Shown one piece after another: positions 15,993 to 42,551 of a stretch of 60,369 bases of DNA. Source of the stretch: an uncultured Nitrospina sp. GTDB lineage: Bacteria; Nitrospinota; Nitrospinia; Nitrospinales; VA-1. Location: the NCBI GenBank assembly GCA_964510965.1, contig CAZECX010000004.1:1-60369 (forward strand), written 5' to 3'. Below the pieces are notes generated by a model that worked only from the letters and a program-made list of their open reading frames with translations, searched no databases and was not told the DNA's origin. The first letter of the stretch is position 1; each line of letters begins with the position of its first letter. The translations under genes were made by a program, and so were the position numbers.

Positions 15993-16430
15993 TTATCTGC
16001 CCAGGTCAATAGCTCTGGTAGCCATTGCCTTCGACGCATTGAGTGCTGTTACATTTGCTTCAAACGATCTTTGCGTGGTCACCATATTTACAACCTCTAT
16101 CATAGGATCGATATTTGGCATGGCCACATATCCTTCATCATTTGCATCCGGGTGTTTTGGGTTAAAAACCAAACGAGGTTCCGACTGGTCTTCCACAACC
16201 TCTGTAACTTGTGGTTTAGTTAGTCGATCTCCCAGTTGATTTTTAAAAATACTTCCGAATTCACTTTCCATAGGAACCGCAGTCACCAAAATATCTTTTT
16301 TGCGATAAGGTCCTCCTTCTGGAGTTCGGGTTGTTTCAAGATTAGCAAGGTTGCTGGAAATAGCTTCCATGCGTTTTCTTTGAACGTTTAACCCTGATGA
16401 ACTGATTTTCATGTTAGTAAGAAAATCCAT
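15993..16430 (-). CDS. flgC: Flagellar basal-body rod protein FlgC
   Basis: ISSSGLNVQRKRMEAISSNLAN, GGPYRKK, HPDANDEGYVAMPNID, RSFEANV. Confidence 0.95.
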   Translation of the reverse strand: MDFLTNMKISSSGLNVQRKRMEAISSNLANLETTRTPEGGPYRKKDILVTAVPMESEFGSIFKNQLGDRLTKPQVTEVVEDQSEPRLVFNPKHPDANDEGYVAMPNIDPMIEVVNMVTTQRSFEANVTALNASKAMATRAIDLGR

Positions 16431-16507: not shown

Positions 16508-16523
16508 AGCAAGTTCCATACCA
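16508..16523 (-). promoter_or_regulatory. Putative sigma54 (-24/-12) promoter of the flgC-fliF operon
   Basis: Minus strand TGGTATGGAACTTGCT (GG-N10-GC), 78 nt upstream of the flgC ATG. Confidence 0.7.
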
Positions 16524-16642
16524 TTACCCGGTCACCTGGGTGGAAGAAAAGGGGGATTGAGAAACCCTTTTATTTAATTAGGTTTATGGTGTTAGGAGGG
16601 AGGAGAGATTTTGCCAGGCAAGGGGTTACAAAACAAAATTCC

Positions 16643-16656
16643 GTCATAATTTTGGC
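16643..16656. promoter_or_regulatory. Possible enhancer-binding-protein site (FleQ-box-like)
   Basis: GTCATAATTTTGGC, one mismatch to a GTCA-N6-TGAC palindrome, ~120 bp upstream of the sigma54 box. Confidence 0.35.
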
Positions 16657-25233: not shown

Positions 25234-25261
25234 TTAATTTTGAACTTATGAGGGCAGAACC

Positions 25262-26257: not shown

Positions 26258-26485
26258 TTATGCGGGTGGGTTGGTTTCGCTGTATTCGTTGAGTTTGTTG
26301 CGTAGGGTACGGATGCTGATTCCTAACGAGTCGGCAGCTTTTGTTTTGTTACCGCTGACCTCTTCGAGGGTCTGCATGATGAGTTCCTTTTCCATTTCAT
26401 AGATAGTTCCCGACAATCGCGGAGTTCCTTTTTCCTTGGAGTGCAATTCTTCATCGAAGAACAAATGCGATGGCAATAACGTATG
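26258..26485 (-). pseudogene. Duplicated 3' fragment (Fis-type HTH + stop) of the sigma54 response regulator at 41175-42551
   Basis: 228-bp alignment to 41175-41402 with 14 mismatches (8 synonymous, 6 non-synonymous). An unrelated 19-codon leader opens ORF 26258-26545 but has no RBS. Confidence 0.9.
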
Positions 26486-26697
26486 ACCGCCAGCACCAGA
26501 AACAATACAGATCCCACTGGCAATTATGACTTTTGAAAACTGCATTCTAAATCTGGTATAAATAATAAGGCGGGTCTTCGGAGGAGGGCCGACTTACTGT
26601 TTTCCTTTTATTCCTCGTAAAAAAAACTTTTTAAACTTTTCTAGCACGCACAAAAAATTCTGATGTTTTACTTAATACCCGCTATGAGAGACAGAGA

Positions 26698-27819
26698 ATG
26701 AGTAATCTTATTACGATCGGAAAACGTTCATTAGAAGAAGGCAAGTTATGTGCATTGGCCTTTTATTTATTTTATGGAGTCATACTTTTTCTCGGCCTAT
26801 TGCTTTTTACGGTCCATAACCGTCCCCAAATAAATTTGGAGGGACTTGTAGATTTCTCGCTTCCTGGAATTCATAATCAACTGCTTCCACTGCTTTCTGC
26901 TACATTCCTTGGCTACTTATCAATGCGACTGGCTCGTCAGCTCTCAGTTCCTATTGTTAATTCTTTTATTTTGGGAATGGGCACCCAGATGGTGTACCTA
27001 ACTTTCCCCAATAATCTTTGGTTTTTTTGGAAAACCTATCCGGCTAGTTGGTGGATTTTCTATATGGCTGTATTTTGGACTTTAGCAGTGAATCAAAATT
27101 ATGAAGAGCAAAAGGATTATACTTTATCATGGTTGAGCATTTCAGTGCTTGCTGGAATGTATTGGGTAGATTGGATCGCCACATTTATTCTTATAATGTT
27201 TTATTGCATGGTGTCCATGCGAAGACCGACTGTGGTTTCAATGAAAGAGTATTTCTTGCAATTAGCCAAAGCTCCTCTGGTGCTGGGAGTAGGGGTCCTC
27301 GTAGTAAAATATACGTTGATTTATCTAGGTATAAGCCTGCTCACTGGAATTTCCAGCGAGTTTTTCTTGCAGGCTTACTGTGAAGAGGGTGTAAGAGGGT
27401 TGGTGTTAAGGCCATTTCCACCTCAACTTCCGAGTTGGAGTATTCTAATTGTATTAGGAGTCATCTCGACTATTGCAGTGCTTATTTTTGTGGAACGAAA
27501 AGAAAAACTTTTTTTTCATCAAGTTATTTTAATTTCGGGTGTCGCGGCTTTTCTTTTTTCAAAAAAGCTTACTCATGGGGCTTTCCATGAATATGGAGTC
27601 TATGATACTTTCCTGGCGTTCCCGCTTATTCTAGCATTATTAACTCTTGTTCCGGCCTGGCTTGAAAATTTCAATGGACATTCAGGGATATTTATTCTTG
27701 TTGCTACTCTATTGGCTTTTTGCTCTTCTTTTATTCAATTACGAAATTATGCTGTGCTTTATCCCATTCCAGGTCCAAATTTTTATAGTGCTTGCTTGTC
27801 GGGCCCCTTTTATCATTAG
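26698..27819 (+). CDS. Multi-pass membrane protein, paralog of 28294-29613
   Basis: About 10 hydrophobic segments; shares TVH(N/D)R, HxQxxPxLS, TFPxNL and PLILALxxLxPAWLE with 28294-29613. Confidence 0.75.
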   Translation: MSNLITIGKRSLEEGKLCALAFYLFYGVILFLGLLLFTVHNRPQINLEGLVDFSLPGIHNQLLPLLSATFLGYLSMRLARQLSVPIVNSFILGMGTQMVYLTFPNNLWFFWKTYPASWWIFYMAVFWTLAVNQNYEEQKDYTLSWLSISVLAGMYWVDWIATFILIMFYCMVSMRRPTVVSMKEYFLQLAKAPLVLGVGVLVVKYTLIYLGISLLTGISSEFFLQAYCEEGVRGLVLRPFPPQLPSWSILIVLGVISTIAVLIFVERKEKLFFHQVILISGVAAFLFSKKLTHGAFHEYGVYDTFLAFPLILALLTLVPAWLENFNGHSGIFILVATLLAFCSSFIQLRNYAVLYPIPGPNFYSACLSGPFYH

Positions 27820-27859
27820 CAAAACTTTAGAGCAGGAAAATTTATCCAAATCATGGATG

Positions 27860-28249
27860 TTATGGTGAGGGGGGAGGGGTTGAATTTTCTAAGTTTGGTT
27901 CTGGGTTCTGCATAGATTTGGAGCTCTCTTTCCAAATAAGTTTAAGTTCGTAAATTATGGGGCTTATCTTTTCACCAATTTGTCGAATCCGCCGAGCATA
28001 TTGTTGAACTTCTTTTTCCGGTAGCTGTATTAATTTAGCCTCCAAGGCTGGGACTACCCGCGAAGACATCTTAATAACTGTATTGCCTAAAACTACCGTG
28101 CCAATTCCTCCAATTCCTACACAAAGTAGAAGAACAATCATGGTTTTAAAAAAAAATGAAAGAAGCCCTGAAGTGCCATAACCAGGGTTTAAAGCTTCAG
28201 GTTTTAACGGTTTTTCCTTCTGTTTGTTAATTTCTGAATTATTCTCCAT
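27860..28249 (-). CDS. Small single-TM hypothetical protein
   Basis: GGAGG RBS before ATG at 28249 (MENNSE...); one TM helix then an amphipathic helix; co-oriented directly after 28294-29613. Confidence 0.65.
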   Translation of the reverse strand: MENNSEINKQKEKPLKPEALNPGYGTSGLLSFFFKTMIVLLLCVGIGGIGTVVLGNTVIKMSSRVVPALEAKLIQLPEKEVQQYARRIRQIGEKISPIIYELKLIWKESSKSMQNPEPNLENSTPPPSP

Positions 28250-28293
28250 GTTAATACCTCCATAAATTAAATTGAATGAGGCAGGTTTTAATA

Positions 28294-29613
28294 TCAAAAG
28301 TAAGGCGGCATATGGAGCCAGTAAGCAAGCATTTGCCCTCCAGCAAAAGCAAAGGCTGTCAAACCTGAAAAAAGAACAAAGACACCAGAGTTTTGATTTA
28401 AAGTTTCCAACCAAGCGGGCAAAAGTGCGAAAAGAGCCAGAATCAAAGGTAAAGCCAAGAGAGGTTCATAGATGTTAATGTGAATCACTTCATTTTGGCT
28501 AAAAACAAAAGCCATAGGAATAAATGATCCTATACCCAGCAATAAGGTCGTTTGATGGTCCAAATGTTTCTTTGTCCTTTGATTAAAGAAAATTACGGCA
28601 ATGGTTGCTGAAGTACCCAAAAATAAAAGCACCTTCCATTTTGGTAGCCAAGGAACATATTGAGAAAAAAGTAAATCCCAATGGTTGGAATAATATTGGA
28701 TATCTCCATCCAACCCCGTTCGAAAATTAAGGGAAGAGCCGTCCAGAATAATTTGTGGAAAATTTAGTTTTACCCAAAGAATTTGGCCCGTCATGATAAG
28801 TGCTGCCGGCACTGCAGCAAAAACTACCGATTTAAGAAATTTAAAAATATTGAGCTCTCTAGGGGCGATGATTAAAAAAATAAAGCCGTAGGACAACATG
28901 AAAAAAAATGTAATGTAATGATCAATATAAAACATCAAGAAAACAATTAGAATCCAAATTGTTTTACTCTTTCCATCATATCCTTTCCAGTTAAAGTGAT
29001 TGTCAATCAATAAAAAGAGTATTGCAAAAGTTAACCAAACATGAACCTGATAGAAATCGAAGACGGCCGACAGGTTCATGGGGAAAGTTTGGAAAACAGT
29101 GAGTGCACTTAATCCCAAAGCTAAGGAGTGGAAAGAGGATATTTTCATTTGAAGTGACAAGCGCATTGCTAATAATCCGAGAAGAGCAGAGGAGAGCATT
29201 GGAAAAAACTGGCTATGCAAGGCCATAAGGAAATAATTAAATTTGCCGGTGACTTTTACATGAGCTCTTTGAAGAAGATGAGCCAATTGCAAATATCCCA
29301 TTGTTAATGACTTCCAGACTACTTGTCGAGGATCTTCTTCAGCAGATTTCTTGAAAGCCAGGCCGCCATGGACAAAATAGCCATGGTTGATCCAGACTTT
29401 TATGGAATCGTAATTTAGGGGACGCCCTCTTTTTCTAAACTCCTCTTCAGTACGGTCATGTACCGTATTGAAAAGAAGAATAAAAAGGGCGAAGCTGTAT
29501 AGGAAAATTATTACCAATGGCATTCTTACGTTTGCGCAAAGGTTCTGGCGAAGTTTTTCAATTGAAATTGTCATTTTGGGAAAGCTAGAGAAAAAAACAG
29601 AATGGCTAACCAT
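28294..29613 (-). CDS. Multi-pass membrane protein, possible GT-C-type (lipid-linked sugar) transferase
   Basis: TM1, a large acidic/aromatic loop (DRTEEE...NYDS..WINHG), then many TMs and a second loop; lies beside a GtrB-like GT2. The GT-C call is inference. Confidence 0.6.
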   Translation of the reverse strand: MVSHSVFFSSFPKMTISIEKLRQNLCANVRMPLVIIFLYSFALFILLFNTVHDRTEEEFRKRGRPLNYDSIKVWINHGYFVHGGLAFKKSAEEDPRQVVWKSLTMGYLQLAHLLQRAHVKVTGKFNYFLMALHSQFFPMLSSALLGLLAMRLSLQMKISSFHSLALGLSALTVFQTFPMNLSAVFDFYQVHVWLTFAILFLLIDNHFNWKGYDGKSKTIWILIVFLMFYIDHYITFFFMLSYGFIFLIIAPRELNIFKFLKSVVFAAVPAALIMTGQILWVKLNFPQIILDGSSLNFRTGLDGDIQYYSNHWDLLFSQYVPWLPKWKVLLFLGTSATIAVIFFNQRTKKHLDHQTTLLLGIGSFIPMAFVFSQNEVIHINIYEPLLALPLILALFALLPAWLETLNQNSGVFVLFSGLTAFAFAGGQMLAYWLHMPPYF

Positions 29614-29940
29614 ATTCTAAGTTAAAACTGAGCTGAATGTAAAGTTGTGTCAATATGCCAGCCATAAGGTTCAAGTAAGGTTCAAATACTGTTGAAGATC
29701 TGCTGAATCTGGTATAGTACGAGCAGCAAGGGTGATTGCTAGAATAATGTAGTGACAGAGAGTTTCTTTCGCGCTTTCAGGGTGGGATTGATTCACGGAA
29801 AAACTGACAGTTCCCGCCAGGAAGCCAAATCAGCTATTTATCATAATAAATTAAGTTATTTACCACCTTTTCCGCAAAGGATAAGTAACTTATTCGAAAT
29901 TTAGCTACCTACAGAGGGTATTGGTAAAATAATAATCAAT

Positions 29941-30966
29941 ATGGTCAAACTATATAAGATTAGAAAATTTTTAAAGCATTTAAGCTTTATGAGAAGCCCT
30001 GTGTTGGTTAAAAGGATTTTCCAAGGCTACTACAACAGTTTAATCAAGGGAAAAGATACTCTCCGGTCTATTGAACTGGCTATTGACTATAGATGTCAGG
30101 CAACCTGCCACAAATGCTATTCTGCTAATTTGGGTACCCATTTCCCCAATGCGAATTATGTCAATAAGCCCATGATGACGGTAGATGAGATACGTCGTAC
30201 CGTTGACCAAGCGATGGACTTAGGTTTGATTCATGTAAATATTACAGGTGGAGAACCTACGCTTCGAAATGATCTTGCTGAAATTGTAGAAGCTTGCAGG
30301 CCCAGGGAAATTATGGTGTCGCTCGTTACTAATGCTCTTTCTTTATCTAGAGAAAAACTAAAGACATTAAGTGAACTTGGGCTGAACCTTTTGCAAATTA
30401 GCTTGGACTCCGCCGATGCTAAAACTCATGATGAGTTAAGGGGCGTACCTGGGTGCTACGACAAAGTAATGCAAACAGCTGCTTGGGCTAAAGAATTTGG
30501 AATAAATCTTTGCTTTACCACCGTTCTTTCTACCGAAAGCACCAGTAATGGTAGCGAAACTCGTAAATTGCTGGAAATTGCTGAGCGAGAAAATGCCTAT
30601 CTTCTTATTTGTGACTCCGCTTCAGTAGGGGGATGGGAAGATCAAGGAGAAAAGGTGATGACAAGAGAAGAAAGAGACGAAACGCTTTTTGAGCTAATGA
30701 AGCATCCTCTTACCCGGCACCATAATATGTATAATTTTAGAGGTTCAATCGGGTGTCCCGCTTCGCATGAAAAGGTCTATATCACATCCCATGGCGATGT
30801 GACCCCCTGTAATTTAGTTCATGATAGTTTTGGTAATGTTTTGAGTACGCCATTGTTTGATATTCTTGCGGAGATGCGAAAAGACCCTTTATGGTCCCAA
30901 ACCCATGATACTTGCCCGCGATACTTGGAAGAGGAGTTTGCAACTCGTGGTGGAGTTCCCATATGA
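29941..30966 (+). CDS. Radical SAM protein with SPASM/twitch-like C-terminus
   Basis: CQATCHKC, ITGGEP, LVTNA, QISLDS, C-terminal GCPASHEKVYITSHGDVTPC...C. Confidence 0.92.
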   Translation: MVKLYKIRKFLKHLSFMRSPVLVKRIFQGYYNSLIKGKDTLRSIELAIDYRCQATCHKCYSANLGTHFPNANYVNKPMMTVDEIRRTVDQAMDLGLIHVNITGGEPTLRNDLAEIVEACRPREIMVSLVTNALSLSREKLKTLSELGLNLLQISLDSADAKTHDELRGVPGCYDKVMQTAAWAKEFGINLCFTTVLSTESTSNGSETRKLLEIAERENAYLLICDSASVGGWEDQGEKVMTREERDETLFELMKHPLTRHHNMYNFRGSIGCPASHEKVYITSHGDVTPCNLVHDSFGNVLSTPLFDILAEMRKDPLWSQTHDTCPRYLEEEFATRGGVPI

Positions 30967-31709
30967 ATCAAGACGAATTCGAGGCGATGGATGCTGGCGG
31001 TCCTGGCCAGTGGTGGTACAATGCTAGAGAGAAGTTGTTAGTAAGGGAATTAAAAAAGCTCTCTTTAGATAAACCGAACCTGAGAATTCTTGACTTAGCA
31101 TCTGCATGTGGTGGTAATTTTTCTACGTGCTATAAACACGGAAAAGTTTTTGGTTTAGATATATCTTGGAAATCAATTGAAATCTGCAAAACAAAGGGCA
31201 TCCAAAATCTAGTTCAGGCAGATGCCCAAGAGCTTCCTTTTGTGAATGGATCTATGGATGTGGTTATTGCTCTGGATGTGCTGGAACATTTAGAAAATGA
31301 TTCTGGATCGATGCGTGAGGTTGCCAGAGTTTTAAATAAGGACGGAGTTTTTATATTCAATACGCCTGCCATGATGCAGCTTTTTTCCTATCATGATTTA
31401 GCATTCCACCACTTCAGAAGATACTCTGCTGTTGAATTAAAGAATAAATTAATTAATGCCAATTTGCAGGTAAGCTGGATTACTTATTGGTCTTTCTTTA
31501 TGTTTCCTGTGGTTTATTCTTTTAGGAAGCTAAAAAATTTTTTTAGCAATTCAGAGGACCAGCCATCAAGCGATTTTCAAATGAAGATTCCTGAATTCAT
31601 TGATAATATCTTTCGATTTTTTAGCCAAATAGAGATCTATCTTCTTAAGCGAAAAATGTATCTTCCAATTGGAGTTTCTCTTTTTGGTACGGCACGAAAA
31701 GTTAACTAG
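30963..31709 (+). CDS. Class I SAM-dependent methyltransferase
   Basis: RILDLASACGG motif I, GLDIS, QADAQELPF, ALDVLEHLEND; ATGA overlap with the upstream gene. Confidence 0.88.
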   Translation: MNQDEFEAMDAGGPGQWWYNAREKLLVRELKKLSLDKPNLRILDLASACGGNFSTCYKHGKVFGLDISWKSIEICKTKGIQNLVQADAQELPFVNGSMDVVIALDVLEHLENDSGSMREVARVLNKDGVFIFNTPAMMQLFSYHDLAFHHFRRYSAVELKNKLINANLQVSWITYWSFFMFPVVYSFRKLKNFFSNSEDQPSSDFQMKIPEFIDNIFRFFSQIEIYLLKRKMYLPIGVSLFGTARKVN

Positions 31710-31715
31710 TTTGTT

Positions 31716-32675
31716 ATGAAGCAATTCTCTGTGATCCTTCCTCTAATGAATGAGGAGGAGGTATTTGAAGAATTATACTCGAGAGTGAAGGAAACCATGG
31801 ACTCTTTGGGTGCTTCTTATGAAATTATTTTTGTGGATGATGGAAGTGACGATTCCACGGGCAAGTTGATTCTGGAATATAGTAAGAAAGACCACAGTAT
31901 TATAGGGGTACTGCTTTCAAGAAACTTTGGCCAGGATAATGCAATTTTGGCAGGCTTAAAGGTCGCTGAAGGACAAGATATCATATTGATGGACGGAGAT
32001 CTTCAGGACCCGCCAGAAGTAATTCTAGATCTTATTCGTGAAAAGCAAAAGGACTATGATGTAGTTTATGGAATAAAGACAGATAGGAAAGAAGGGGTAA
32101 TGATTAAAGGAATGACCTCTATGTTTTATCAGTTTATGTTTTTTTTGTCAGGAATTCGAATGCCAAGAAATGTTGGAACATTTTCGATTTTTTCCCGACA
32201 GGTTGGAAATGCAATAATACAATTTCCGGAGTCAAATAAATTTTTCAGTGGGCTCAGATTCTTTGTGGGTTTTAAGCAAGTAGGAGTTTTTTATGAAAGG
32301 GAAAGGAGAGTTCAAGGGAAATCAAAATCCTTTATTTCCTTGGCCAGGATGGCGATGAATGCAATTTTTTCGTATACCATTTTCCCGATGAGACTGGCCA
32401 TACTTTTTGCTTCAATTCTAACAATTTTAACAGGGTTTGTTTTACTGCTTTATATTTTTCAAGCCATAATAGGCTCCCAAACATTTATTGATTTATCATT
32501 GTTTTTTGAGCCTTTTACAATTTTGGTTTTAGGCATGATATTAATGATTTTGATTGTGATTGCAGAGGTTGTGGGTCGCATTGATGCTCAGGTGAAAAAG
32601 AGACCTGAATATATTGTCAAATCAATAATTCGAAATGGGGCAGTTGATATTGGAGCTCCATTTGTCTTGCATTAA
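31716..32675 (+). CDS. GT2 glycosyltransferase, GtrB/ArnC-like polyprenol-phosphate sugar transferase
   Basis: VILPLMNEEE, FVDDGSDD, LSRNFGQ, MDGDLQDPPE, two C-terminal TMs, KRPEYIV. Confidence 0.92.
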   Translation: MKQFSVILPLMNEEEVFEELYSRVKETMDSLGASYEIIFVDDGSDDSTGKLILEYSKKDHSIIGVLLSRNFGQDNAILAGLKVAEGQDIILMDGDLQDPPEVILDLIREKQKDYDVVYGIKTDRKEGVMIKGMTSMFYQFMFFLSGIRMPRNVGTFSIFSRQVGNAIIQFPESNKFFSGLRFFVGFKQVGVFYERERRVQGKSKSFISLARMAMNAIFSYTIFPMRLAILFASILTILTGFVLLLYIFQAIIGSQTFIDLSLFFEPFTILVLGMILMILIVIAEVVGRIDAQVKKRPEYIVKSIIRNGAVDIGAPFVLH

Positions 32676-32720
32676 ATGCAAACTGATTTTTAAAAAGCAA
32701 ACCATTTTATAGGCAGTCCT

Positions 32721-34325
32721 ATGAGAATTACATTTGTAATGATGGGTTGGGAAAACCTTTCCGTCCAATATATATCCTCATATTTGAAAGAACGTGGGCA
32801 TGAAGTACGGCTTGCTTATGATCAATCTCTGTTTGAGGATAAAAATTATTTATCAATGCCGTTTTTGGCTCGCATTTTTGATCAGGGAGACAATATTGTC
32901 AAACAGGTTATTGACACAGAACCGGATTTGGTATGTTTTTCTGTTATGTCTGTTACCCACCAATGGTCACTTAAGACAGCCGAGGAAATTAAGAAATACA
33001 TGAATGTCCCCATATTGTTTGGTGGCATCCACGCTATAATCTGCCCGGAAGAAATTATTGCAAAAGACCAAGTGGATATGGTTTGTCTGGGTGAAGGTGA
33101 ATATGCTCTGGCCGATTTATTGGATAGCATGGAGAAGGGGGCGATAGATAAATCATTAGATGGGTTTTATTTTAAAAAAGCAAATGGTGAAGTTATCAGG
33201 AACAAAAAGCGTGGCCTTATTGCTGACATGGACACTATGCCTTTTCCTGATAAAGAGCTTTTTGCTCCATTTATTCCGATTAAAAATTACTACCTGGCAG
33301 TGACTAATAGAGGCTGCCCTTTTTCATGTTCCTATTGTTCTGTTTCTGCGCAAGATGCTGTTGAGAAAGATTTGGAAAACTTTAAAAAAGTGAGAGAGCG
33401 CAGTGTAGATAATGTTTTGGAAGAACTTAGAATCAATAAGGCTAAATACGGCTATAAATGGATTGATTTTAGAAACCCAGTTTTTTCTCCTTCAAAAGAT
33501 TGGATATTAGAATTTTGTGAGAAATATAAGGAACAAATAAATGTTCCCTTTCGTATTTTCAGCCATCCTTTGCTTATAAGGGAAGACACCTCTATAGCTT
33601 TGAAAGAAGCAGGATGTTTTGCTATTCAAATGGGCCTTGAATCTTATGATCCTGATGTCAGAAATAAATTCTTGCATAGGATAGAGACAAATGAGCAAAT
33701 TAACAAGGCTATAGGAATAATGGAGAAAGTTGGAGTTACTTATTCCATGGATTATATCCTCAATCTTCCAGGTCAAGAAGAGCCGGAACTCATAGAAGTT
33801 GGTAAACTTTTTTCAGGGTTGAAATATCTTTACAGGGTTTCTCCATTTTTGTTGACATATCTCCCTAAATTAAAAATTAACGAATACGCAATGCAAGAAG
33901 GGGCGTTGGATCCCAAAGAAGAAAAAAATATCAACCAAGGGCTCCAGGGAAGCTATATGGATATTGGCTCCGATATGGAAAAGAATAGAAGAAAGCTAAT
34001 GCAAACGTATAAGCTATTTTTTAGATTAATGAGCTTTATGCCCAGGTGGATGAAGCAGTTAACTTTTAAAACAAAGATTTATCATATGTTTTATTATTTG
34101 CCCTTTGATTTTATTCTGAGGCTTTTTGATTTAAGCATGGTATTTCGTGATTATGATGCTAATGCTTATGCGCGTAATTATTGGTGGTGGTTTTCAAAAA
34201 GGTTCAACTCTAAGCATCCGAGCTACTTTTTCAATAACCTAAAGGCATTTAGAGGGCCCAATGATCCCCCCAAAAATAGGAATTCTATCAAGCTAAGTCT
34301 TGCCGAAGATCGTTCCCTTCTGTAA
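32721..34325 (+). CDS. Cobalamin-binding radical SAM protein
   Basis: N-terminal B12-binding domain (QYISSYLKERGHEV; LFGGIHA..CPE; GEGE), RGCPFSCSYC, QMGLES. Confidence 0.92.
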   Translation: MRITFVMMGWENLSVQYISSYLKERGHEVRLAYDQSLFEDKNYLSMPFLARIFDQGDNIVKQVIDTEPDLVCFSVMSVTHQWSLKTAEEIKKYMNVPILFGGIHAIICPEEIIAKDQVDMVCLGEGEYALADLLDSMEKGAIDKSLDGFYFKKANGEVIRNKKRGLIADMDTMPFPDKELFAPFIPIKNYYLAVTNRGCPFSCSYCSVSAQDAVEKDLENFKKVRERSVDNVLEELRINKAKYGYKWIDFRNPVFSPSKDWILEFCEKYKEQINVPFRIFSHPLLIREDTSIALKEAGCFAIQMGLESYDPDVRNKFLHRIETNEQINKAIGIMEKVGVTYSMDYILNLPGQEEPELIEVGKLFSGLKYLYRVSPFLLTYLPKLKINEYAMQEGALDPKEEKNINQGLQGSYMDIGSDMEKNRRKLMQTYKLFFRLMSFMPRWMKQLTFKTKIYHMFYYLPFDFILRLFDLSMVFRDYDANAYARNYWWWFSKRFNSKHPSYFFNNLKAFRGPNDPPKNRNSIKLSLAEDRSLL

Positions 34326-34466
34326 CTGAGGAAAGGAAAGTTTGGCAGTTAGACTGCACGTTTACCGCCTTAGGTTTTTATAAGGATATAACCCTATTCA
34401 ATAGGGTTTATGACTGATCAAATCAACGGTTTTTTCAAGCTCTGCTTTTATAGGAGTAATTAAGGC

Positions 34467-35528
34467 ATGTCTTCCGTTTTTAAGACCCTGTATAACGGGC
34501 GAAAATCCCTGGCAAAACTTATAAAGGCCAAAGTTACGGGGCAACGAATCCCAGTAAGGGTTTGTTTACTTGTAACTAAGTATTGCAATTTAACCTGTTT
34601 CTTTTGTTATGCAGAAGACATTCTGAATTCAAAAGCCGTTCAGGAATATTCTTTAGACAATATCAAGAATATTGTTGACCAGTTGTATGAAGCTGGATGC
34701 CGCCAGATTACTATTGTTGGAGGCGAACCCCTTATTCGGGATGATATTGGAGATATCATAGATTACATCCATAACAAAGGAATGTTTGTTGAGATGACCA
34801 CGAACGGCTATTTTGTAAAAAAAAGAATCAAAGCCCTTAAAAAAGTGGACCACTTATGCATTAGCCTAGATGGCAATAAAGAATCGAATGATGCAAGTCG
34901 CGGTGAAGGTTCATTTGAAAAAATTATAGAAGGAATCATTTGTGCATCAGAGAATGGAATAGCCGTTAGAGTGCACGCTACGCTTTCAAAGATAACTAAC
35001 AATGAAGAATCTCTTAAATTCTTATTGGAATTTTGTAAAAGAATGGATGTCAAGCTGAATATCTCAGAGATCAGTCTGCCAGGCATCGAACAAAAAGATT
35101 CTAAGTACCTTCTTTCAAAGGAGGAAAGCAGAAATTTTTATGAAGTTTATAGAGGATTTAAAAAGTCTGGATACCCTATAGCCAGCTCGTACATGGCCAT
35201 GGATTATGTCGAAAAATGGCCTTTGGGTGATGAGACTACCCTGTATAAAAAGGACCTTGATAAAGTTTCCAAGGATAGTTACTTTCCATGCACGTTTGGC
35301 AGAACTCAGGCCTTTGTCAGTGCTGATGGAAATGTGTATTCCTGCACTAAAAAGTGGGGAGACGGTAAGAACATGCTTGAAGTCGGATTCGACAAAGCTT
35401 GGGAATATTTTGAGGATTTGGATTGTGTGGCCTGTAAAGAGTTGGGTTGCATTGAGCAAAGTGCTATTACCAATCTTGCATTCCGGACCTTATTTAATAC
35501 GTTGAAGAATTTTGCTATGATGAAATAG
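34467..35528 (+). CDS. Radical SAM protein with twitch-like C-terminus
   Basis: CNLTCFFC, VGGEPL, MTTNG, CISLDG, C-terminal PCTFG...DGNVYSC...CVAC. Confidence 0.92.
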   Translation: MSSVFKTLYNGRKSLAKLIKAKVTGQRIPVRVCLLVTKYCNLTCFFCYAEDILNSKAVQEYSLDNIKNIVDQLYEAGCRQITIVGGEPLIRDDIGDIIDYIHNKGMFVEMTTNGYFVKKRIKALKKVDHLCISLDGNKESNDASRGEGSFEKIIEGIICASENGIAVRVHATLSKITNNEESLKFLLEFCKRMDVKLNISEISLPGIEQKDSKYLLSKEESRNFYEVYRGFKKSGYPIASSYMAMDYVEKWPLGDETTLYKKDLDKVSKDSYFPCTFGRTQAFVSADGNVYSCTKKWGDGKNMLEVGFDKAWEYFEDLDCVACKELGCIEQSAITNLAFRTLFNTLKNFAMMK

Positions 35529-35638
35529 CAAAAAAATATTGTATTTCCTGCCATTGCCTGAAGTTTTCTCACGCATGGAAACCTCACTATAGTCCCTAAT
35601 CTGTATGAACTTTTTCACATTAACTTAAAGAATGCTGA

Positions 35639-36451
35639 ATGAATTCCTTACAATCATGTCTTAAGGGAAAGTCAATTTTGATTACAGGGGCTTCAGAAGG
35701 CATTGGTCTTGCGATAACTGAAACACTTAGTAGTTTTGGAATGAAAATGGGATTGTTGGCTCGTTCCGAAGAAAAACTTATAAAAATAGCCGCTCGGGTA
35801 AATTCGGTTGGAAGTGAGGCTTTTATTCTAAAGGCAGACTTGAGCGATCGCAAAGAAGTGGAAGATGCTGCACGAAAATTCGAAGAGGTACACGGTGTCC
35901 CCGATTTTTTAATAAATAATGCGGGTATCGGTCTCAGGGGATTTTGGAAGGATATAGATTTGGATGCAGAGCTAAAAGTTTTATCCGTTAATTTTACTGC
36001 CCCATTAATTCTAATTCGCTACTTTCTACCAGCAATGTTGCAAAGAAACAGCGGTCATATAATAAACATCAATGCCTTTGGAGGGATGTTCTCGAACCCC
36101 TATCAAGGCGCCTACGGCGCAAGTAAATCAGCTCTCCTTTTTTACGCCTCAAGCCTTGCGTATGAACTTGAAAATACAAATGTGCAAATCTCCTCGATTA
36201 TTCCTGGCGCTATAAATACAGATTTTCTCAACCAGGCAAACTACGAAGTATTCAAAAACCGTTCCGATATTGTATCCCCAAAAGTGGTAGCAGAAAAAGT
36301 GTTGGAGACAATCAAAAAACCTAGAGAAATAGCTTACGTGGGGCCAGCATGGAAAAAAATCGCAATAAAAGTCATTAACTTGTATCCCGAATTCTTTCGA
36401 AAAATTGTAGAAAAGGGGAATATTCCTCCCTCGTCAACTTCAAAAAACTAA
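35639..36451 (+). CDS. Short-chain dehydrogenase/reductase
   Basis: ITGASEGIG, LINNAGIG, YGASK catalytic YxxxK, IPGAINT. Confidence 0.93.
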   Translation: MNSLQSCLKGKSILITGASEGIGLAITETLSSFGMKMGLLARSEEKLIKIAARVNSVGSEAFILKADLSDRKEVEDAARKFEEVHGVPDFLINNAGIGLRGFWKDIDLDAELKVLSVNFTAPLILIRYFLPAMLQRNSGHIININAFGGMFSNPYQGAYGASKSALLFYASSLAYELENTNVQISSIIPGAINTDFLNQANYEVFKNRSDIVSPKVVAEKVLETIKKPREIAYVGPAWKKIAIKVINLYPEFFRKIVEKGNIPPSSTSKN

Positions 36452-36551
36452 ACCGGGTAAAAATAATCAAGCTCCAGAGGTTACCTATCACAGGCCACCT
36501 TTTTCTATTTTATCCAGAGGGAGACTAAATTATAATCCGGTTTTTTGGTTT

Positions 36552-38120
36552 TTAATGCCGGCAAAACCCTCTAAATTGCTTGGGAACATAGCACATGCTA
36601 ATAGCATTTTTGCTAAAAATTTTTTTGATCTCTTCCTCTTTTTTACCTCCTTGGGGTACTAGTCCGAGATTGCAACCGGCTTCTAATAGTACTTGTGGCC
36701 CGTCGATGAAAGGAAAAAACGCATCCGCGGCAAAAACAGAAGACTCCATTGAATGGCCTTGTTCCTGAGCCCGGCACACAGCATTCCGGATAGCGATGAT
36801 CGTTGATGGTCCTCCCCCCAAGCCAACCAATTGTCTACCCTTTACAAGAGCCACCTCGTTACCACCTAAATTAGAACTCCAAACCGTCGCCCATGCCAGA
36901 ATCAGAGATTCGATTTGTTCTTTAGAAGGATCTTCTCCTACCCAATAAGAACTTTTCAAATCCAAAATATAATTTGCTGGAGGCTGGCGGATCATTCCAC
37001 CGCGAACCCACCGTAAACCCCAAGGTTGGTTTGGCAGCATTGGATCGACCAAAGTCTTATTTCTAAAAATTTTCCTGTTTTTCCGTTGTGAAAGAGTTTC
37101 GACTGCATACGGAGAAAAGGAAGGTGCCACTACTACATCCAGCATCCAATTCCTTGTGCCAAGCATTTCTTGTCTAACAGAGCTGTCAATAAGCAAATTA
37201 ACTAGGTCATCGGTTATGGGAAAGTTACAAATGAACTCCCCTCCCCAAACTGCCTGAGGATTTCCAAATAGAGCATTTTCCAAGGCAACTGCAGGGTCTT
37301 TCCAGTCGATGGCAAAACCACAAGGGTTGCCATGCTTGGAGGCGATAGCCAGAAAAGGGGATTGCCTAAATTCCTTTTTAAATGCCTCATGAGCCAGGCA
37401 CAACGTCTGGAGAATGCTATCTAAATCGGCCAAATTGGTAAAACAGGGTGCCTCCTTTCCCAACAATTCAAACTTGTGAAGGGATAGCGGATCGTTGTCA
37501 CCAAAATCCGAAAAAAGATGACAGGGGCTCTGATAAGGGTTTTCCCCACTTGATAGTTCTAGGTTTTTAATGCTAACGATACCTTCACCAAAAGAATCTT
37601 GCTGCTGTAAAAGTTTTACGTAATGAGCGGCAATATGAACAAGGGTTTTGTTTGTAAATTCCGCCTTCAGGGAATCAGAGACTTTTCCATTCACTTTAAA
37701 TTCCCCGATGCATCGTTCCATATCGGTATAGGACATAATGGGAATCCTATTACCCTTTACCGCAAGAGCCAAAAGCGTATGTCCACCTACATCATTGCCC
37801 TGGTCAAGCGAATATGGGATATCGAAAAGCAAATCAATTCTCTTGTCAGTCTGTTCTAAGGTCAGTGCTGATTCAATCTTGGGGTGCAGAGTTGGTGGAA
37901 ACCCGTAATCTTCAGATATGCCAACAAACGATTCAATGTCAATGCAGGGAATTTGAATTTCTTTTAACAATGGGGTGGTTTCTTTTGTAGATATGATCTC
38001 CCAACCCAATTGATGTAAACTCCGTGCAAATTCCTTAACCTGGGTGGTGTTGGATAAAGAAAATAATGCTCTCAATAAATCCCTCCGGTCATCCCTCAAA
38101 TGTCCCTTCTGATAGACCAT
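36552..38120 (-). CDS. Divergent PurH-like protein (degenerate MGS/IMPCH domain + AICAR-transformylase-like domain)
   Basis: RALFSLS, TLHPKI, SGENPYQ, KHGNPCG, DVVVAPSF, AADAFFPFIDG retained; canonical STGGT and GRVKTLHP replaced by STKET and GFPPTLHP. Confidence 0.82.
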   Translation of the reverse strand: MVYQKGHLRDDRRDLLRALFSLSNTTQVKEFARSLHQLGWEIISTKETTPLLKEIQIPCIDIESFVGISEDYGFPPTLHPKIESALTLEQTDKRIDLLFDIPYSLDQGNDVGGHTLLALAVKGNRIPIMSYTDMERCIGEFKVNGKVSDSLKAEFTNKTLVHIAAHYVKLLQQQDSFGEGIVSIKNLELSSGENPYQSPCHLFSDFGDNDPLSLHKFELLGKEAPCFTNLADLDSILQTLCLAHEAFKKEFRQSPFLAIASKHGNPCGFAIDWKDPAVALENALFGNPQAVWGGEFICNFPITDDLVNLLIDSSVRQEMLGTRNWMLDVVVAPSFSPYAVETLSQRKNRKIFRNKTLVDPMLPNQPWGLRWVRGGMIRQPPANYILDLKSSYWVGEDPSKEQIESLILAWATVWSSNLGGNEVALVKGRQLVGLGGGPSTIIAIRNAVCRAQEQGHSMESSVFAADAFFPFIDGPQVLLEAGCNLGLVPQGGKKEEEIKKIFSKNAISMCYVPKQFRGFCRH

Positions 38121-39406
38121 TCCGTTCCATGGTCTCCGTTAATGGAGGCGATTTCGACTTCCGAGGATGGCCCAGAGTCATCACTGAACGACTCCATCTT
38201 TTTTATGACCGTGTAGATCTCATACAGCCCTCGGTAAAAAGGCAGGGCCTTGTCAAAATTACTCATTATAACTTCATCGTTTAAGCCTATACCTCTGGGG
38301 CAATCCTGATGAGTTTTTATGCATTTGTACTTGTACGTTCCTTGGTCGTCTTGCATTACATTGTATTGAACCGCAAAGGAAGTATTGGGGCAACACACGC
38401 CGGCGGTTTGTCGATCAGGGGATAGAAAAGCCAGTTGCCCGCCGTGGTAAAGGACATAAAAATATGGATAAGCGACATGAAATGAAGTATAGCAAGGAAT
38501 TCCCGATGCTTTAATCAACTCGTCAACGGAATACCATTGATCAATTTGGACGGGAAAATCAAAATCCCCCATGGTGCGCTTCAATTTGACTTGGGTGCTA
38601 TATTTATCGCAAAGTTTATCATTGATATGCTTGGCATCAGTAGGCTTGTCTAAAATAGAAAAAGTGACTTGTGTTCTGTAGTCTGGACACCCAGCGACAA
38701 AATTATTATTTTCAATATCCAGGTAAGGGTAAATGGAGGTAAATGCTGCTGGGCAGAGTTCATCTCTCTTGTCCAGGTTAAAATAAAAATCATGGTCTCG
38801 AGTGATTCCAATAAGGCAACCCTTGCCTTCATCCACGGCCTTAATATGAATATCCTTGTCAGGAATTTCAACAGGCATTATAAAATTTAGGATCCATCTA
38901 AGAATATTCTTAAAGTATACCCAGGGGTTGAATTTTCTTTTTGAGGAGTAAATCCTGAAGCTCACTCCATCGGACCCTAGAGGGCAGGAAATTATTTCCC
39001 CGGCAGGATTCATTTTCAGTTTTGACTTATTCTGATTGCAATGCAGGGCCAACAGTGTCGGATAAAGATTCAAAAAAGCTGCGGGGCACATGCCTTGGCT
39101 GAGAAGGCTGACTTGCTTGTTATCTGAATTCAATGGATGGTAACGGCACCTGTTGTCGGTAGCATCGTATACAAGTTTCAGTCCCTTCTCCTTTTCTTCG
39201 GCCATCCTTGCACATAAGGGGTGACTTGAAACTTCTTTGTTGGTTATTGTCGACATATTACTGAAGAAATGCTCATAAAAGAGTAGTAAGCAATTTTTTA
39301 AATTATCACAAATATTTGTTATCAATTCAAGGACAACAGGTTTTTGATCCAAATCCCGACATAGCAACTGGATGCTGCAGGTCAGCGTTTTATATTCATA
39401 GGGCAC
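38096..39406 (-). CDS. Cys-rich protein with three tandem TIGR04076-like domains
   Basis: Repeats MCPAAFLNLYP...SCPLGSDGVSF, LCPAAFTSIYP...GCPDYRTQVTF and PCYTSFHVAYP...CCPNTSFAVQY. Family assigned from memory of the motif. Confidence 0.68.
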   Translation of the reverse strand: MPYEYKTLTCSIQLLCRDLDQKPVVLELITNICDNLKNCLLLFYEHFFSNMSTITNKEVSSHPLCARMAEEKEKGLKLVYDATDNRCRYHPLNSDNKQVSLLSQGMCPAAFLNLYPTLLALHCNQNKSKLKMNPAGEIISCPLGSDGVSFRIYSSKRKFNPWVYFKNILRWILNFIMPVEIPDKDIHIKAVDEGKGCLIGITRDHDFYFNLDKRDELCPAAFTSIYPYLDIENNNFVAGCPDYRTQVTFSILDKPTDAKHINDKLCDKYSTQVKLKRTMGDFDFPVQIDQWYSVDELIKASGIPCYTSFHVAYPYFYVLYHGGQLAFLSPDRQTAGVCCPNTSFAVQYNVMQDDQGTYKYKCIKTHQDCPRGIGLNDEVIMSNFDKALPFYRGLYEIYTVIKKMESFSDDSGPSSEVEIASINGDHGTEWSIRRDI

Positions 39407-39451
39407 TCATAAATTTACGAAGAAAAGACATGCAATCTAATTTTTTAAGGC

Positions 39452-40807
39452 CTATTTTAAAAAAAAATATATTTTTTTCGCGATTCCATATGCTGGATGC
39501 TCGTAATTATATGGTAATAACCTTTTCGCAAAATTTTTAGAAGTTGTTAAGAACATTTCGTAAAACCGTTCTTTGCCAATTCTTTTATTATATATCTTAA
39601 AGTACTCCTCAAGTTCTTCAATGGATTCTGCTCTTCCATTATCAGCATACTTTGTAACATAATAATCAAAATCTCCTTCGTAAAGGGATCTCATGTTGTG
39701 CAAAGTAGTTTTCATAAAGTTTCCAATTAACAAGTCATCAAAAATTTCATAATTTACTGCTTTCATCAAACTATTTCGGGGAGCTTCGAATGTAATCCCT
39801 TTATTTTTTTCTCCCTTTAGTTTGATAAAATTATCCTTATTTCCCACTCGGAAATTTATGAATGAAATAAACTGATTGACTTTTTCTTTTCTAGAAAAAT
39901 AGTCACTAATCCTGTTTAAGTCCTTTTGATTTAATTCTTCGGTCCAATCGTCGCCAAAAGTTTTAGAGTCCAATTGCTCTATCAAATTTTTTTCGACCTC
40001 AATCTGATGGATTTCACCATTCGAACAATTTACAATTGCGAATGGCGGAATATATTCTAAATCTTCATGGAATTTAATAGAATAGGCATCTATTGGGGTT
40101 GTGTATTTGTTTGTCCAAATGGAATCGTTTCTTTGGTATATATGGAAGGAACTAAAGGGAATTACACTATTTAAACCGAGAGATTTAGCATATAAAGACA
40201 AATCATTTCCAACATGGGTATTTTTTAATGCAATAGGTTCAATGAAATCTCCATTTTCATCATAAAAATTGATCATATCTGCGTCACCATATCCTGATAG
40301 CGTCAGCAAAAATTTTTTCCGATAATTCTTGGATATTTTCTTGATAATTCCAGTGCAACCTTTATCCCCAGCATCATTAAGATTTACAAATAAGTACCCA
40401 TTTATATCAACTAAAAGAATTGCGTTTTGAGTTACTGTGGTGATGCAAAACACCTTTATCTTTCCTGAAAGGTTTACCCACTTTCTGTCAGGAAGTATTC
40501 CTACATCAAAACCTTTTTGTTCAAGCCCGTCTTTTATTCTACTCCCTACGTGGTCCGGCAAAAGAATTTTATTGCTTTTGAAGCGTTCAATGCTGGAAGG
40601 ATTTAAATGATCTGGGTGTCCATGAGAAAACCAGATAAATTCTGCATTATGGATATCATTCTTTATTGGAGTAGGTATTTTATGAGACAGGTTCCAACTC
40701 CCAAAATACGCATCATCTTCCTCTCCAAACCAAGGATCTGTTGCCAAGATGCATTTCTTTTCATAAGCTACCAAAGTTGCATTTCCTATTGTTTTAAGGT
40801 GTGGCAT
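39452..40807 (-). CDS. MBL-fold metallo-hydrolase/oxygenase (UlaG / CMP-Neu5Ac-hydroxylase-like core)
   Basis: LATDPWF...YFGSWNLSH, FSHGHPDH metal motif, NLNDAG, IPFSSFH. Confidence 0.78.
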   Translation of the reverse strand: MPHLKTIGNATLVAYEKKCILATDPWFGEEDDAYFGSWNLSHKIPTPIKNDIHNAEFIWFSHGHPDHLNPSSIERFKSNKILLPDHVGSRIKDGLEQKGFDVGILPDRKWVNLSGKIKVFCITTVTQNAILLVDINGYLFVNLNDAGDKGCTGIIKKISKNYRKKFLLTLSGYGDADMINFYDENGDFIEPIALKNTHVGNDLSLYAKSLGLNSVIPFSSFHIYQRNDSIWTNKYTTPIDAYSIKFHEDLEYIPPFAIVNCSNGEIHQIEVEKNLIEQLDSKTFGDDWTEELNQKDLNRISDYFSRKEKVNQFISFINFRVGNKDNFIKLKGEKNKGITFEAPRNSLMKAVNYEIFDDLLIGNFMKTTLHNMRSLYEGDFDYYVTKYADNGRAESIEELEEYFKIYNKRIGKERFYEMFLTTSKNFAKRLLPYNYEHPAYGIAKKIYFFLK

Positions 40808-41174
40808 GATTCCATCTCTCCCCTGGTTCCTTTGTCGGACTGTTGGAAATTTAAAACTTGAGAATAATTTTGCCTCAAGATTTTTTGAATATCCCTTTTA
40901 CAAAAGCTCATTTGTTTTGCTTTGAAAATTTTGGTGGTCTTTTTTTTTCACAATTTACTTCAGGCTCAGACACATCTATAAATTATACCTTCATTGGCGG
41001 GGCAATGATTATTATCAAACGTTCCAAACTAAACGCAATTGTTTCTTCACTTGGAAAGCAAGTCCTTTGAACATTTATGTGTTTAAGAGTCACAGGGTAA
41101 ATATTTTCTGAGACTGAGAGCAGTTTTCTCCAATAACCTTTATCAGCAATCTCCTTAATGTGGTATGAGGGGGG

Positions 41175-41402
41175 TTAAGCAGGAGGGCTAGTTTCGCCGT
41201 ATTCGTTGAGTTTGTTACGTAGGGTGCGGATGCTGATTCCTAACGAGTCGGCAGCTTTTGTTTTGTTGCCGTTGACCTCTTCGAGGGTCTGCATGATGAG
41301 TTCCTTTTCCATTTCATAGATAGTTCCCGACAATCGCGGAGCCCCTTTTTCCTTGGAGTGCAATTCTTCATCGAAGAACAAATGCGATGGCAATATCGTA
41401 TC
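41175..41402 (-). repeat. Second copy of the 228-bp direct repeat (intact gene end)
   Basis: ~94% identical to 26258-26485, same orientation. Confidence 0.95.
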
Positions 41403-42551
41403 GTCCTGACACATCAGGCAGGATCGCTCAACAATATTCCCAAGTTCACGAATATTTCCCGGCCAACGATATTTTTTGAGCAGGGTTAGGGTTGCTGAAT
41501 CTATCTTTAAGGGAGATTTGTTATTTTCCTGACAAAACTGATGGATAAAATTATCTACGAGAACGGGAATATCATCGATTCTTTCTCTTAAAGGAATGAG
41601 GTTAATTGGAACTACGTTCAATCTGTAATAAAGGTCTTCACGAAACTGCTGATCCTGAATACGTTTTCGAATATCGCGGTTGCTGGTAGCGATGACTCGG
41701 ACATCTACCGGGATGGGCATTCGGCCGCCAATTTTATCGATTTCATGTTCCTGCAAAACGCGCAGTAGTTTGGCCTGCAATGGTAAGGACATTTCTGTTA
41801 CTTCATCAAGAAGCAATGAGCTGTTGTTTGCCATTTCAAACTTTCCTTCTTTGTTTTCAGTTGCACCGGTGAAGGAACCTTTTTCATGGCCGAACAGTTC
41901 TGATTCGAGCAAACCTTCTGGCAAGGCGGCACAGTTTACCGCCATGAAAGGTTTTTCTGAACGTGGACTGCATTGATGGATATAACGTGCGAACAGTTCT
42001 TTTCCCGTTCCAGTTTCACCCATGATGAGAACGGTTGACTTGCTGTATGAAACATTTTCGGCAAATTGCAGGAGCTTTTTCATTTCCTCATTCTGTGTAA
42101 CGATTCTTTTCATCTCTCCCAAAGTTTCCATTTGCGGGGAGGGACGAGGAACAGGAGGGGTGAAGCTGCCAGGGTCTAAAAATGCACGTTTTACTGTTGA
42201 AACCAGTACGTCTGCAGAAAAACCCGAACCTTTTATTAAATAGTCAAAGGCTCCTTCTTTCATTGCCTCAACAGCATTGTCTATTGTTCCATAGGCCGTC
42301 ATCATCACGACTTGAGTTTCGGGAGATTTTTCTTTTACTGCGCGCAACAATTCCAGTCCATTTATTTTTGGCATGCGAACATCGGTGAGAACGAGATCGA
42401 AATCATCGTCTTCCATTTTTTCTAATGCCCGTTTTCCATCCTCGGCACAGGTGAGCTGAAATCTTTCCCTTTTTAATGTGGTCTCTAATGCCACACGCAT
42501 TTCGGATTCGTCATCAACGATCAGAATTTTTTTAGATTCATTATTTTTCAT
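41175..42551 (-). CDS. Sigma54-dependent response regulator (REC-AAA-HTH), FleR/FlgR-like
   Basis: ILIVDDE, LTDVRMP, GETGTGKE, ESELFGHEKGSFTGA, FREDLYYRLNV, WPGNIREL, Fis-type HTH; start overlaps the kinase stop. Confidence 0.93.
   Translation of the reverse strand: MKNNESKKILIVDDESEMRVALETTLKRERFQLTCAEDGKRALEKMEDDDFDLVLTDVRMPKINGLELLRAVKEKSPETQVVMMTAYGTIDNAVEAMKEGAFDYLIKGSGFSADVLVSTVKRAFLDPGSFTPPVPRPSPQMETLGEMKRIVTQNEEMKKLLQFAENVSYSKSTVLIMGETGTGKELFARYIHQCSPRSEKPFMAVNCAALPEGLLESELFGHEKGSFTGATENKEGKFEMANNSSLLLDEVTEMSLPLQAKLLRVLQEHEIDKIGGRMPIPVDVRVIATSNRDIRKRIQDQQFREDLYYRLNVVPINLIPLRERIDDIPVLVDNFIHQFCQENNKSPLKIDSATLTLLKKYRWPGNIRELGNIVERSCLMCQDDTILPSHLFFDEELHSKEKGAPRLSGTIYEMEKELIMQTLEEVNGNKTKAADSLGISIRTLRNKLNEYGETSPPA

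Follow-up and report, generated by a model that had tools for sequence, protein, structure and literature searches.

An orphan 3' end of a sigma-54 response regulator gene between two stacked cassettes in the flagellar locus of an uncultured Nitrospina sp.

The locus described here is located on contig CAZECX010000004.1 (GCA_964510965.1) of the metagenome-derived genome of an uncultured Nitrospina sp., and the entire 60,369-bp contig is referred to as the window. Between the gene of an NtrC-family sigma-54 response regulator (RR; 41175..42563, minus strand) and the flagellar gene flgC (15993..16430, minus strand) the window carries 24.5 kb of inserted DNA (~16690-41174), which extends from the RR stop codon to the region of a conserved motif about 220 bp before flgC. 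In order from the RR, the insert is composed of module B (26486-41174), an orphan copy of the RR 3' end (26258..26485, minus strand) and module A (~16690-26257), the 16690 boundary of the latter being set where homology to the RR-flgC spacer of related genomes starts. The window holds two cassettes stacked at one site. The original prediction, made from the sequence of this stretch, had described the 14.7 kb between the two RR 3' ends as an island; its limits had to be revised, since the orphan tail is found in the middle of the 24.5-kb variable region and does not adjoin the conserved flank.

The orphan tail (repeat copy A, or tail A) comprises 76 codons including the stop and contains the whole HTH_8 DNA-binding domain; its counterpart (repeat copy B, or tail B; 41175..41402, minus strand) consists of the final 75 codons of the intact RR together with its stop. 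In blastn the segments 26255-26484 and 41172-41401 form a gapless direct repeat of 94% identity (E 1.6e-98), and this is the sole long repeat of the window. A comparison codon by codon of 26258-26485 with 41175-41402 reproduces exactly the count given earlier, i.e. 14 mismatches, of which 8 are synonymous and 6 non-synonymous, in a gapless alignment with a common stop. The first mismatch (CAT/GAT, 26485/41402) sits on the edge of the homology. Both tails share the TAA stop and three bases beyond it, and the homology breaks off abruptly on both sides: at 26484/26485, at an arbitrary codon, and 3 nt past the stop, which is the point where the sequence of every relative diverges too. The pentanucleotide ATACG is common to both tails at the 26484/26485 edge, and the 228-bp repeat includes perfect runs of 69, 52 and 41 nt. 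In the direction of transcription the intact RR (42563->41175) is the upstream copy and the orphan tail (26485->26258) the downstream one, so that the attL/attR-like geometry first proposed, with an intact gene upstream and a displaced 3' end downstream, is borne out. The frame of tail A is still open, with 95 amino acids from an ATG at 26545 or 72 from a TTG at 26476, and it was called as a 72-aa HTH_8 protein by a gene caller. Neither a third copy of the tail nor a weaker RR remnant was detected in the window by blastn with 7-nt words or by tblastn, including at the boundary between module A and flgC.

The junctions of the repeat are not an assembly artefact. Three further contigs, obtained with different assemblers, match one or both of them at 100% identity, which answers the concern raised with the original prediction that two strains might have been joined there. 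The ENA MEGAHIT contig k141_412513 (L081/L138; 39,363 bp) is 100% identical over 12.4 kb comprising module A, the tail and module B, and elsewhere differs from the window by one 63-bp tandem unit and one mismatch. The JGI contig Ga0209992_10014314 (L137, sample 3300024344) is 100% identical across the TPR gene, the histidine kinase (HK) gene, the RR and the start of module B. The Logan contig L141, for which SRR5211068 was the only run assembled, matches 26449-30819 at 100% identity, spans the junction of module B with the orphan tail and has a tail-A-specific base. It ends exactly at the start of the 52-nt perfect repeat, the behaviour expected of a true genomic repeat in a graph assembler.

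Comparison with relatives shows that the interval between the RR stop and the flgC promoter is a hot spot for different accessory cassettes in the Nitrospinaceae. Some 40 related Nitrospinaceae loci, drawn from collections of genomes and metagenomes, have 250-360 bp from the RR stop to flgC. This spacer is non-coding and contains two conserved elements. The first is the motif CAAAATTATGACGG (= CAAAWWTATGACGG, CAAAATTATGACGGAATTTTG; 16641..16654, minus strand), which belongs to a palindrome, CAAAATT..AATTTTG (16641-16661), and lies some 220 bp ahead of flgC. It is present 212-222 bp before flgC in all 13 relatives with flgC on the locus (e.g. L088 10255, L003 3148), and is likely to be a candidate enhancer-binding site of a sigma-54 activator. 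The window has a second, degenerate copy of it 33 bp further upstream (16674-16687). The second element is a sigma-54 type promoter, TGGTATGGAACTTGCT (= TGGTATGGAACTTGC; 16508..16523, minus strand), about 90 bp before flgC and conserved in the same 13 relatives. Five relatives carry 1.2-3.6 kb of inserted DNA and at least five more carry inserts of over 3.7-10 kb. Wherever both edges are visible (5 of 5 relatives) the insert falls into the interval from the RR stop to the -220 motif, which measures about 30-50 bp in most empty genomes.

The contents of the relatives' cassettes are mutually unrelated. They include a Na:alanine symporter (1.9 kb, L083), a formate-tetrahydrofolate ligase (2.7 kb, L001), genes with OEP and ABC substrate-binding domains (3.4 kb, L092), an M90 peptidase with a beta-CASP nuclease (3.6 kb, L002), HypD/E/F (>4 kb, L082 and L084; the family check covers HypF only) and a phosphoenolpyruvate-utilising enzyme with a hydrolase and a hybrid kinase (at least 8 kb, L004 and L090); the smallest insert, of 1.2 kb, is that of L100. 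Roughly 0.5 kb past the RR stop of L005 (9761-12594), in an insert of more than 3.7 kb, there are genes for a CI-type repressor and a transposase of the Mu type (Mu-transpos_C); this looks like the end of a transposable Mu-like prophage, within which the contig stops. The variable cassettes to be expected from the original prediction are therefore found in relatives at this site, but none of the at least ten other cassettes is flanked by RR tails. No module A or module B genes occur in the cassettes of the other relatives examined, and module A is missing from this site in all of them. The arrangement RR-module A-flgC, which a precise excision between the repeats would give, was seen in no relative, the empty sites being without the whole 24.5 kb. 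When sister haplotypes having just one of the two modules beside the RR were sought by exact-protein look-ups, every contig retrieved was identical to the window.

On sequence comparison the two tails are each other's closest relatives, i.e. sister alleles of one narrow lineage. They are 94% identical overall and 96% over the first 204 nt, with at most 87% identity to the tail of any relative; in protein sequence 5 of 74 residues separate them, as against 6-8 for the next closest C-termini. None of the RR relatives returned from a library of 5.8 billion proteins has a C-terminus closer to either tail, a tail A-type protein is absent among the 15 members listed of the RR's 90% cluster, and in scans of genomes and metagenomes no lineage exceeded about 87% nucleotide identity in the tail. 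By the Nei-Gojobori method dS is 0.19 and dN 0.03 (omega 0.16-0.19), and the synonymous excess is significant against neutrality of both copies (P = 0.002-0.004). Tail A is free of indels and stops at 6% divergence, and three of its five amino-acid states that differ from tail B (T, S, N) are present in intact orthologues. The numbers are small, and most of the divergence looks like divergence between working alleles, with a later relaxation of tail A being possible.

No recombinase domain was found with Pfam and NCBIfam in the 12 open reading frames (ORFs) of module B, in module A or in the other long ORFs checked, in agreement with what was first noted; genes for an integrase, transposase, excisionase or tRNA were not detected in the window either. 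Besides the tails, the terminal direct or inverted repeats at the module edges were only chance 8-11-mers. Toxin or immunity domains were likewise not found, both tails being the same HTH_8 domain. As the defining recombinase was looked for and not found, the locus falls outside the class of integrase-borne islands. A protein-coding target had been considered an anomaly, which we do not follow, since a protein-coding 3' end is not unusual in itself.

Candidates for further orphan RR tails were examined in the sequence collections, and all were discarded. Three of them are on metagenome contigs of more distant Nitrospinaceae, in which RR tails are joined to unrelated or inverted sequence or repeated in tandem. 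The candidate on L128 (1-331) is past the junction 100% identical to the normal locus L129 and probably an assembly chimera; that on L139 (1-72, 2953-2961) consists of a normal TPR-HK-RR segment folded back on itself, the contig end being tangled, also a probable chimera; and that on L118 (5203-5337), in N-rich sequence, is a tandem copy of 114 nt where the contig ends, probably a chimera as well. Two of the joins in these three contigs coincide, to within a few bases, at RR codon ~368. L140 has a full-length RR with a frameshift. Short HTH_8 proteins in the library, of which P0168 and P0161 were checked, mostly come from contigs of small size and may represent genes truncated where the contig stops.

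The intact RR has 462 amino acids, or 458 from the second Met, and is the second gene of an HK-RR pair. It is composed of the Pfam domains REC, Sigma54_activat, AAA_lid_14 and HTH_8, and its orthologues in the closest loci of metagenome-assembled genomes of Nitrospinaceae/Nitrospinota show 79-94% amino acid identity. In NCBIfam the best model is AtoC (460 bits, cut-off 714) and NtrC is also below its cut-off, as are the flagellar-specific models FlbD (375 bits, cut-off 750) and FlgR (355 bits, cut-off 750). Since no flagellar-specific model reaches its cut-off, the flagellar role rests on synteny: in about 40 relatives the HK-RR pair is directly upstream of a GG-N10-GC sigma-54 promoter and flgC-fliFGHIJ. 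The designation as flagellar regulator is in this way supported by domain architecture and partner kinase and by the synteny in about 40 relatives, but not by the flagellar family models. The near flank continues with the PAS histidine kinase partner (42541..43812, minus strand), conserved in relatives, and with an AMIN/TPR protein upstream of the pair (43861..46449, same strand) which is preceded by a sigma-54-like promoter (46482-46497); these three genes possibly form one operon. On the far flank flgC is the first gene of a conserved flgC-fliF-fliG-fliH-fliI-fliJ block (9357-16430), the flgC and fli names being a reading of the translations. Flagellin and fliD are present at 51-59.5 kb of the window, which also encodes a secretin.

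Module B is 14.7 kb long, with a GC content of 0.383 as against 0.41-0.44 in the flanks, and its 12 ORFs are separated by intergenic gaps of at most 370 bp. It starts, at the orphan tail, with a triad composed of a membrane protein (26698-27819, plus strand), a small ORF (27860-28414, minus strand) and a paralogous membrane protein (28294-29613, minus strand). Neither membrane protein has a Pfam or NCBIfam match. Six genes on the plus strand follow, assigned by Pfam/NCBIfam: a radical SAM/SPASM protein (29941-30966), a methyltransferase (30912-31709), a GT2 glycosyltransferase (31716-32675), a B12-binding radical SAM protein (32721-34325), a radical SAM protein (34467-35528) and an SDR (35639-36451). 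The last three, on the minus strand, are a PurH-like protein (AICARFT/IMPCHase; 36552-38120) scoring well under the purH cut-off, a TIGR04076-like Cys-rich protein of 436 aa (38096-39406) overlapping it, and an MBL-like protein (39452-40807), which is the module B gene nearest to the RR. These three are an odd trio within a glycan cluster. A homologue of the MBL-like gene with 90% identity is present on another contig beside a sulfotransferase and a PK-like gene.

The two multi-pass membrane proteins are about 30-34% identical to each other, and each ends in a ...LPAWLE... motif. The triad is rare, with 11 homologues of at most 63% identity in a large protein library. The homologous membrane proteins are always paired, with the small ORF between them, and always in glycan-type clusters, one of them inside a large polysaccharide cluster with DegT, GFO/IDH, GT4, GT2 and B12-binding radical SAM genes; they are possibly an undescribed family of polymerase, ligase or flippase-like type. 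One copy of the triad (L136, 572-3717; 60-63% identical) lies about 540 bp from an apparent tRNA gene 3' end (L136 1-30, CGCGAGTTCGAGTCTCGTCGGCCCCGCCA), recognised by eye from the sequence, so that the same gene set would occupy a classical island site in another organism. By its gene content module B looks like a piece of a mobile cluster of the surface-glycan type. Its position makes a role in flagellin glycosylation possible; genes of the Maf, Pse or Leg type are absent from module B, and it is not preceded by a sigma-54 promoter that would link it to the flagellar regulon.

Module A (~9.6 kb, GC 0.408 vs 0.41-0.44 in the flanks) contains signalling genes and putative osmolyte genes. Next to flgC are the genes of an S-adenosylmethionine-dependent methyltransferase (300 aa; 17059-17961, minus strand), with generic methyltransferase domains only, and of a 502-aa membrane protein (18303-19811, plus strand) which by eye resembles a BCCT-type transporter. 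Read in this way, the two genes (17059-19811) resemble a sarcosine/dimethylglycine methyltransferase with a BCCT-type transporter, and such a pair would suggest an osmolyte (glycine betaine) module. They are followed by a REC-HK (19973-21091, plus strand), a REC-GGDEF protein (21210-22142, minus strand), a CHASE3 hybrid HK (22468-25233, plus strand) and a REC-PAS protein (25262-26095, plus strand). Inside the CHASE3 hybrid HK gene a 63-bp tandem repeat (23676-23801, two copies 98% identical) encodes KEEAVRAQRAAESARTQAEVA, a unit of 21 residues. One of the copies is missing from the ENA contig of this genotype, where the protein has 900 aa instead of 921 aa; the difference is either copy-number variation or an assembly collapse.

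The explanation we prefer, to which we would give about an even chance, is that the orphan tail is a recombination scar and that module B was gained, together with the RR 3' end of a sister lineage, by homology-facilitated illegitimate recombination (HFIR). The starting genome would have had the arrangement RR (tail A)-module A-flgC and would have taken up DNA from a closely related lineage, in which the donor RR 3' end (tail B) was followed by module B. A homologous crossover in or upstream of the RR would have joined the incoming DNA at one end, and an illegitimate join at RR codon 385/386 at the far end. In this way the incoming DNA would restore an intact RR, the resident 3' end and module A would be displaced 14.9 kb downstream, and a site-specific recombinase would not be required. 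The order of these events, the donor and the recombination pathway are what we infer from the final arrangement.

The absence of RR tails from the relatives' cassettes, taken with the absence of a third tail, indicates that integration with duplication of the tail is not the general mode of change at this site. As the other cassettes are without tails, the hot spot probably changes in most cases by double crossover in the conserved flanks. A double crossover leaves no duplicate, and the present locus therefore needs HFIR, the insertion of a circle by a single crossover, or a site-specific recombinase acting at the start of the repeat. The earlier view that the island came from a relative by homologous recombination is in this respect only half sustained: that the tails are nearest relatives speaks for it, but a double crossover cannot produce the duplication.

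Several points weigh against the gain of module B by HFIR. No sister genome with RR-module A only or RR-module B only was found, so that donor, recipient and order of events are presumptive, and HFIR would need the uptake of foreign DNA, by natural competence or an equivalent. The 90% MBL-like homologue in another context means that the immediate donor of module B need not have had an RR neighbour. As to the tails, the synonymous excess is marginal (P = 0.04-0.06) if tail A is taken as neutral and tail B as constrained. Polarised with outgroups (13 substitutions), the tail A branch has about 4 non-synonymous to 2-5 synonymous changes, with which a partial decay of tail A in place fits too; the tail B branch has 1 non-synonymous to 3-6 synonymous. 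The claim that both copies diverged as functional alleles accordingly has the low omega and the test against neutrality of both copies in its favour, but loses strength under the assumption that only tail A was neutral.

The alternative closest to the idea of the original prediction is a Campbell-type insertion, in which a circle carrying the 228-bp RR 3' end and module B, e.g. a circularised fragment of a sister strain, would have been inserted by a single RecA crossover within the RR 3' end, making both tails mosaics of donor and recipient. It yields an identical final geometry, the perfect runs of the repeat are long enough for RecA, no recombinase gene is present, and the tails come from very close lineages. 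However, an illegitimate join at RR codon 385 would still be required to close the circle, and a non-replicating circle of 15 kb is rarer as an intermediate than linear DNA; we consider this course of events unlikely. It differs from HFIR in the intermediate only, and the sequence alone does not separate the two.

Somewhat less likely again is the site-specific integration of a mobilisable or decayed island without integrase, whose attachment (att) site would overlap the RR 3' end and which would carry the replacement 3' end, the integrase having acted in trans or having been lost, as for elements of the cis-mobilisable (CIME) type beside integrative and conjugative elements (ICEs). The attL/attR-like geometry with a restored gene, the low GC content of module B and the related membrane-gene cluster beside the apparent tRNA 3' end of L136 speak for such an event. 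They are outweighed by the lack of any recombinase in 60 kb, where the intergenic gaps are too short for a hidden remnant, by the duplicated tail being present in 0 of at least 10 other cassettes with no third copy past module A, by an att homology which at 228 bp and 94% identity would be unusually long and divergent, and by a cargo that is an ordinary polysaccharide-type cluster without transfer genes.

A duplication within the genome, e.g. a segmental one of which the first copy was later overwritten, with the orphan tail decaying in place since, appears improbable. The relatively more numerous non-synonymous changes on the tail A branch than on the tail B branch would fit, as would the fact that each tail has the other as its nearest known relative, but the overall omega of 0.16-0.19 and the lack of indels or stops in tail A would not, and the absence of similarity between modules A and B would demand extra replacement steps. 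A chimeric assembly joining two strains that occur together, of which one would have RR-module B and the other RR-module A, is in spite of the metagenomic origin of the source contig and of the chimeric look of other contigs of the family at their RR tails (L128, L139) very hard to sustain, as the junction of module B with tail A is identical in the window contig, the MEGAHIT contig and the single-run Logan contig, and as a join through shared sequence should leave one hybrid tail and not two.

Whichever of these models applies, RecA could act on the 228-bp repeat to delete module B; what remained would be a single hybrid RR with module A behind it. The excision by RecA which was proposed at first is plausible for a repeat of this length with perfect runs, but no deleted or excised form of module B was found. 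With respect to regulation, flgC retains its own sigma-54 promoter and upstream motif, so that activation in trans is still possible. We also considered whether the orphan tail might be expressed as a Fis-like protein of 72-95 aa competing with the full-length RR at the flgC enhancer, in which case gain or RecA-mediated loss of module B would alter flagellar regulation as well. The intact frame, the low overall omega, the several tail A residue changes present in working orthologues and a weak sigma-70-like site (26551-26523) would agree with this, but no convincing ribosome-binding site was seen before the tail A frame and the tail A branch looks relaxed, which makes it a quite improbable reading.

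The structure is of a known kind, with no new mechanism, and gene gain by recombination with a close relative, which it most likely marks, is an ordinary way for genomes to change. For type VI secretion system (T6SS) and Rhs loci, both HFIR and the orphaned 3' ends resulting from it have been discussed (Kirchberger et al. 2017, PMC5361080), where the works cited on HFIR and displacement are de Vries & Wackernagel 2002, Prudhomme et al. 2002 and Jackson et al. 2009. As in the C-terminal displacement of Rhs, contact-dependent inhibition (CDI) and T6SS effector loci (PMC5361080), the incoming segment would be anchored in the conserved part of a gene and bring a new 3' end with cargo, the old 3' end being shifted downstream as an orphan. 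Here, unlike there, the tails are near-identical alleles of a DNA-binding domain and not toxin domains with immunity genes, and the cargo, 14.7 kb long, consists of genes for metabolism and polysaccharides. Exchange of islands by homologous recombination in conserved flanks is described for aquatic bacteria (Lopez-Perez, Martin-Cuadrado & Rodriguez-Valera 2014, PMC4033161). With those flexible islands the present locus shares the single site between conserved genes, the variable gene sets without mobility genes, the cargo of cell-surface polysaccharide type and perhaps, to judge from the two tails, the mostly synonymous divergence at the island edge. It differs in that the exchange would be additive and leave a duplicated gene end, where a clean double crossover leaves none, and in its site within the flagellar cluster of Nitrospinaceae.

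The attL/attR-like arrangement calls for comparison with elements inserted at gene ends. Integrative elements that restore the 3' end of their target include tRNA-targeting islands and the ICEs and CIMEs that occupy the 3' end of a protein gene, e.g. of fda in Streptococcus thermophilus. The likeness consists of direct repeats of a gene 3' end flanking the insert, with the gene intact; the differences are the missing integrase and excisionase, a repeat far longer and more divergent than att cores, and other cassettes at the same site without such repeats. Tandem accretion of ICEs and CIMEs would moreover give three repeat copies for two elements, while the window has two. Polymorphic glycosylation islands also occur in flagellar clusters, e.g. 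the a-type flagellin glycosylation island of Pseudomonas aeruginosa. Module B resembles these as a variable cluster with glycosyltransferase and methyltransferase genes in a flagellar locus, at 10-17 kb from flagellin and fliD, but differs in lacking the gene types and the promoter named above and in having its nearest homologues in general polysaccharide clusters.

Flexible islands free of mobility genes are common in marine bacteria, and their gain is mostly inferred from patterns of divergence. At the present locus a displaced gene end would be the physical scar that records an additive, one-sided recombination event. Nitrospinaceae are important marine nitrite oxidisers, and in this family the scar pinpoints a hot spot, about 30-50 bp wide, which lies between the gene of a flagellar regulator and the promoter targeted by it.

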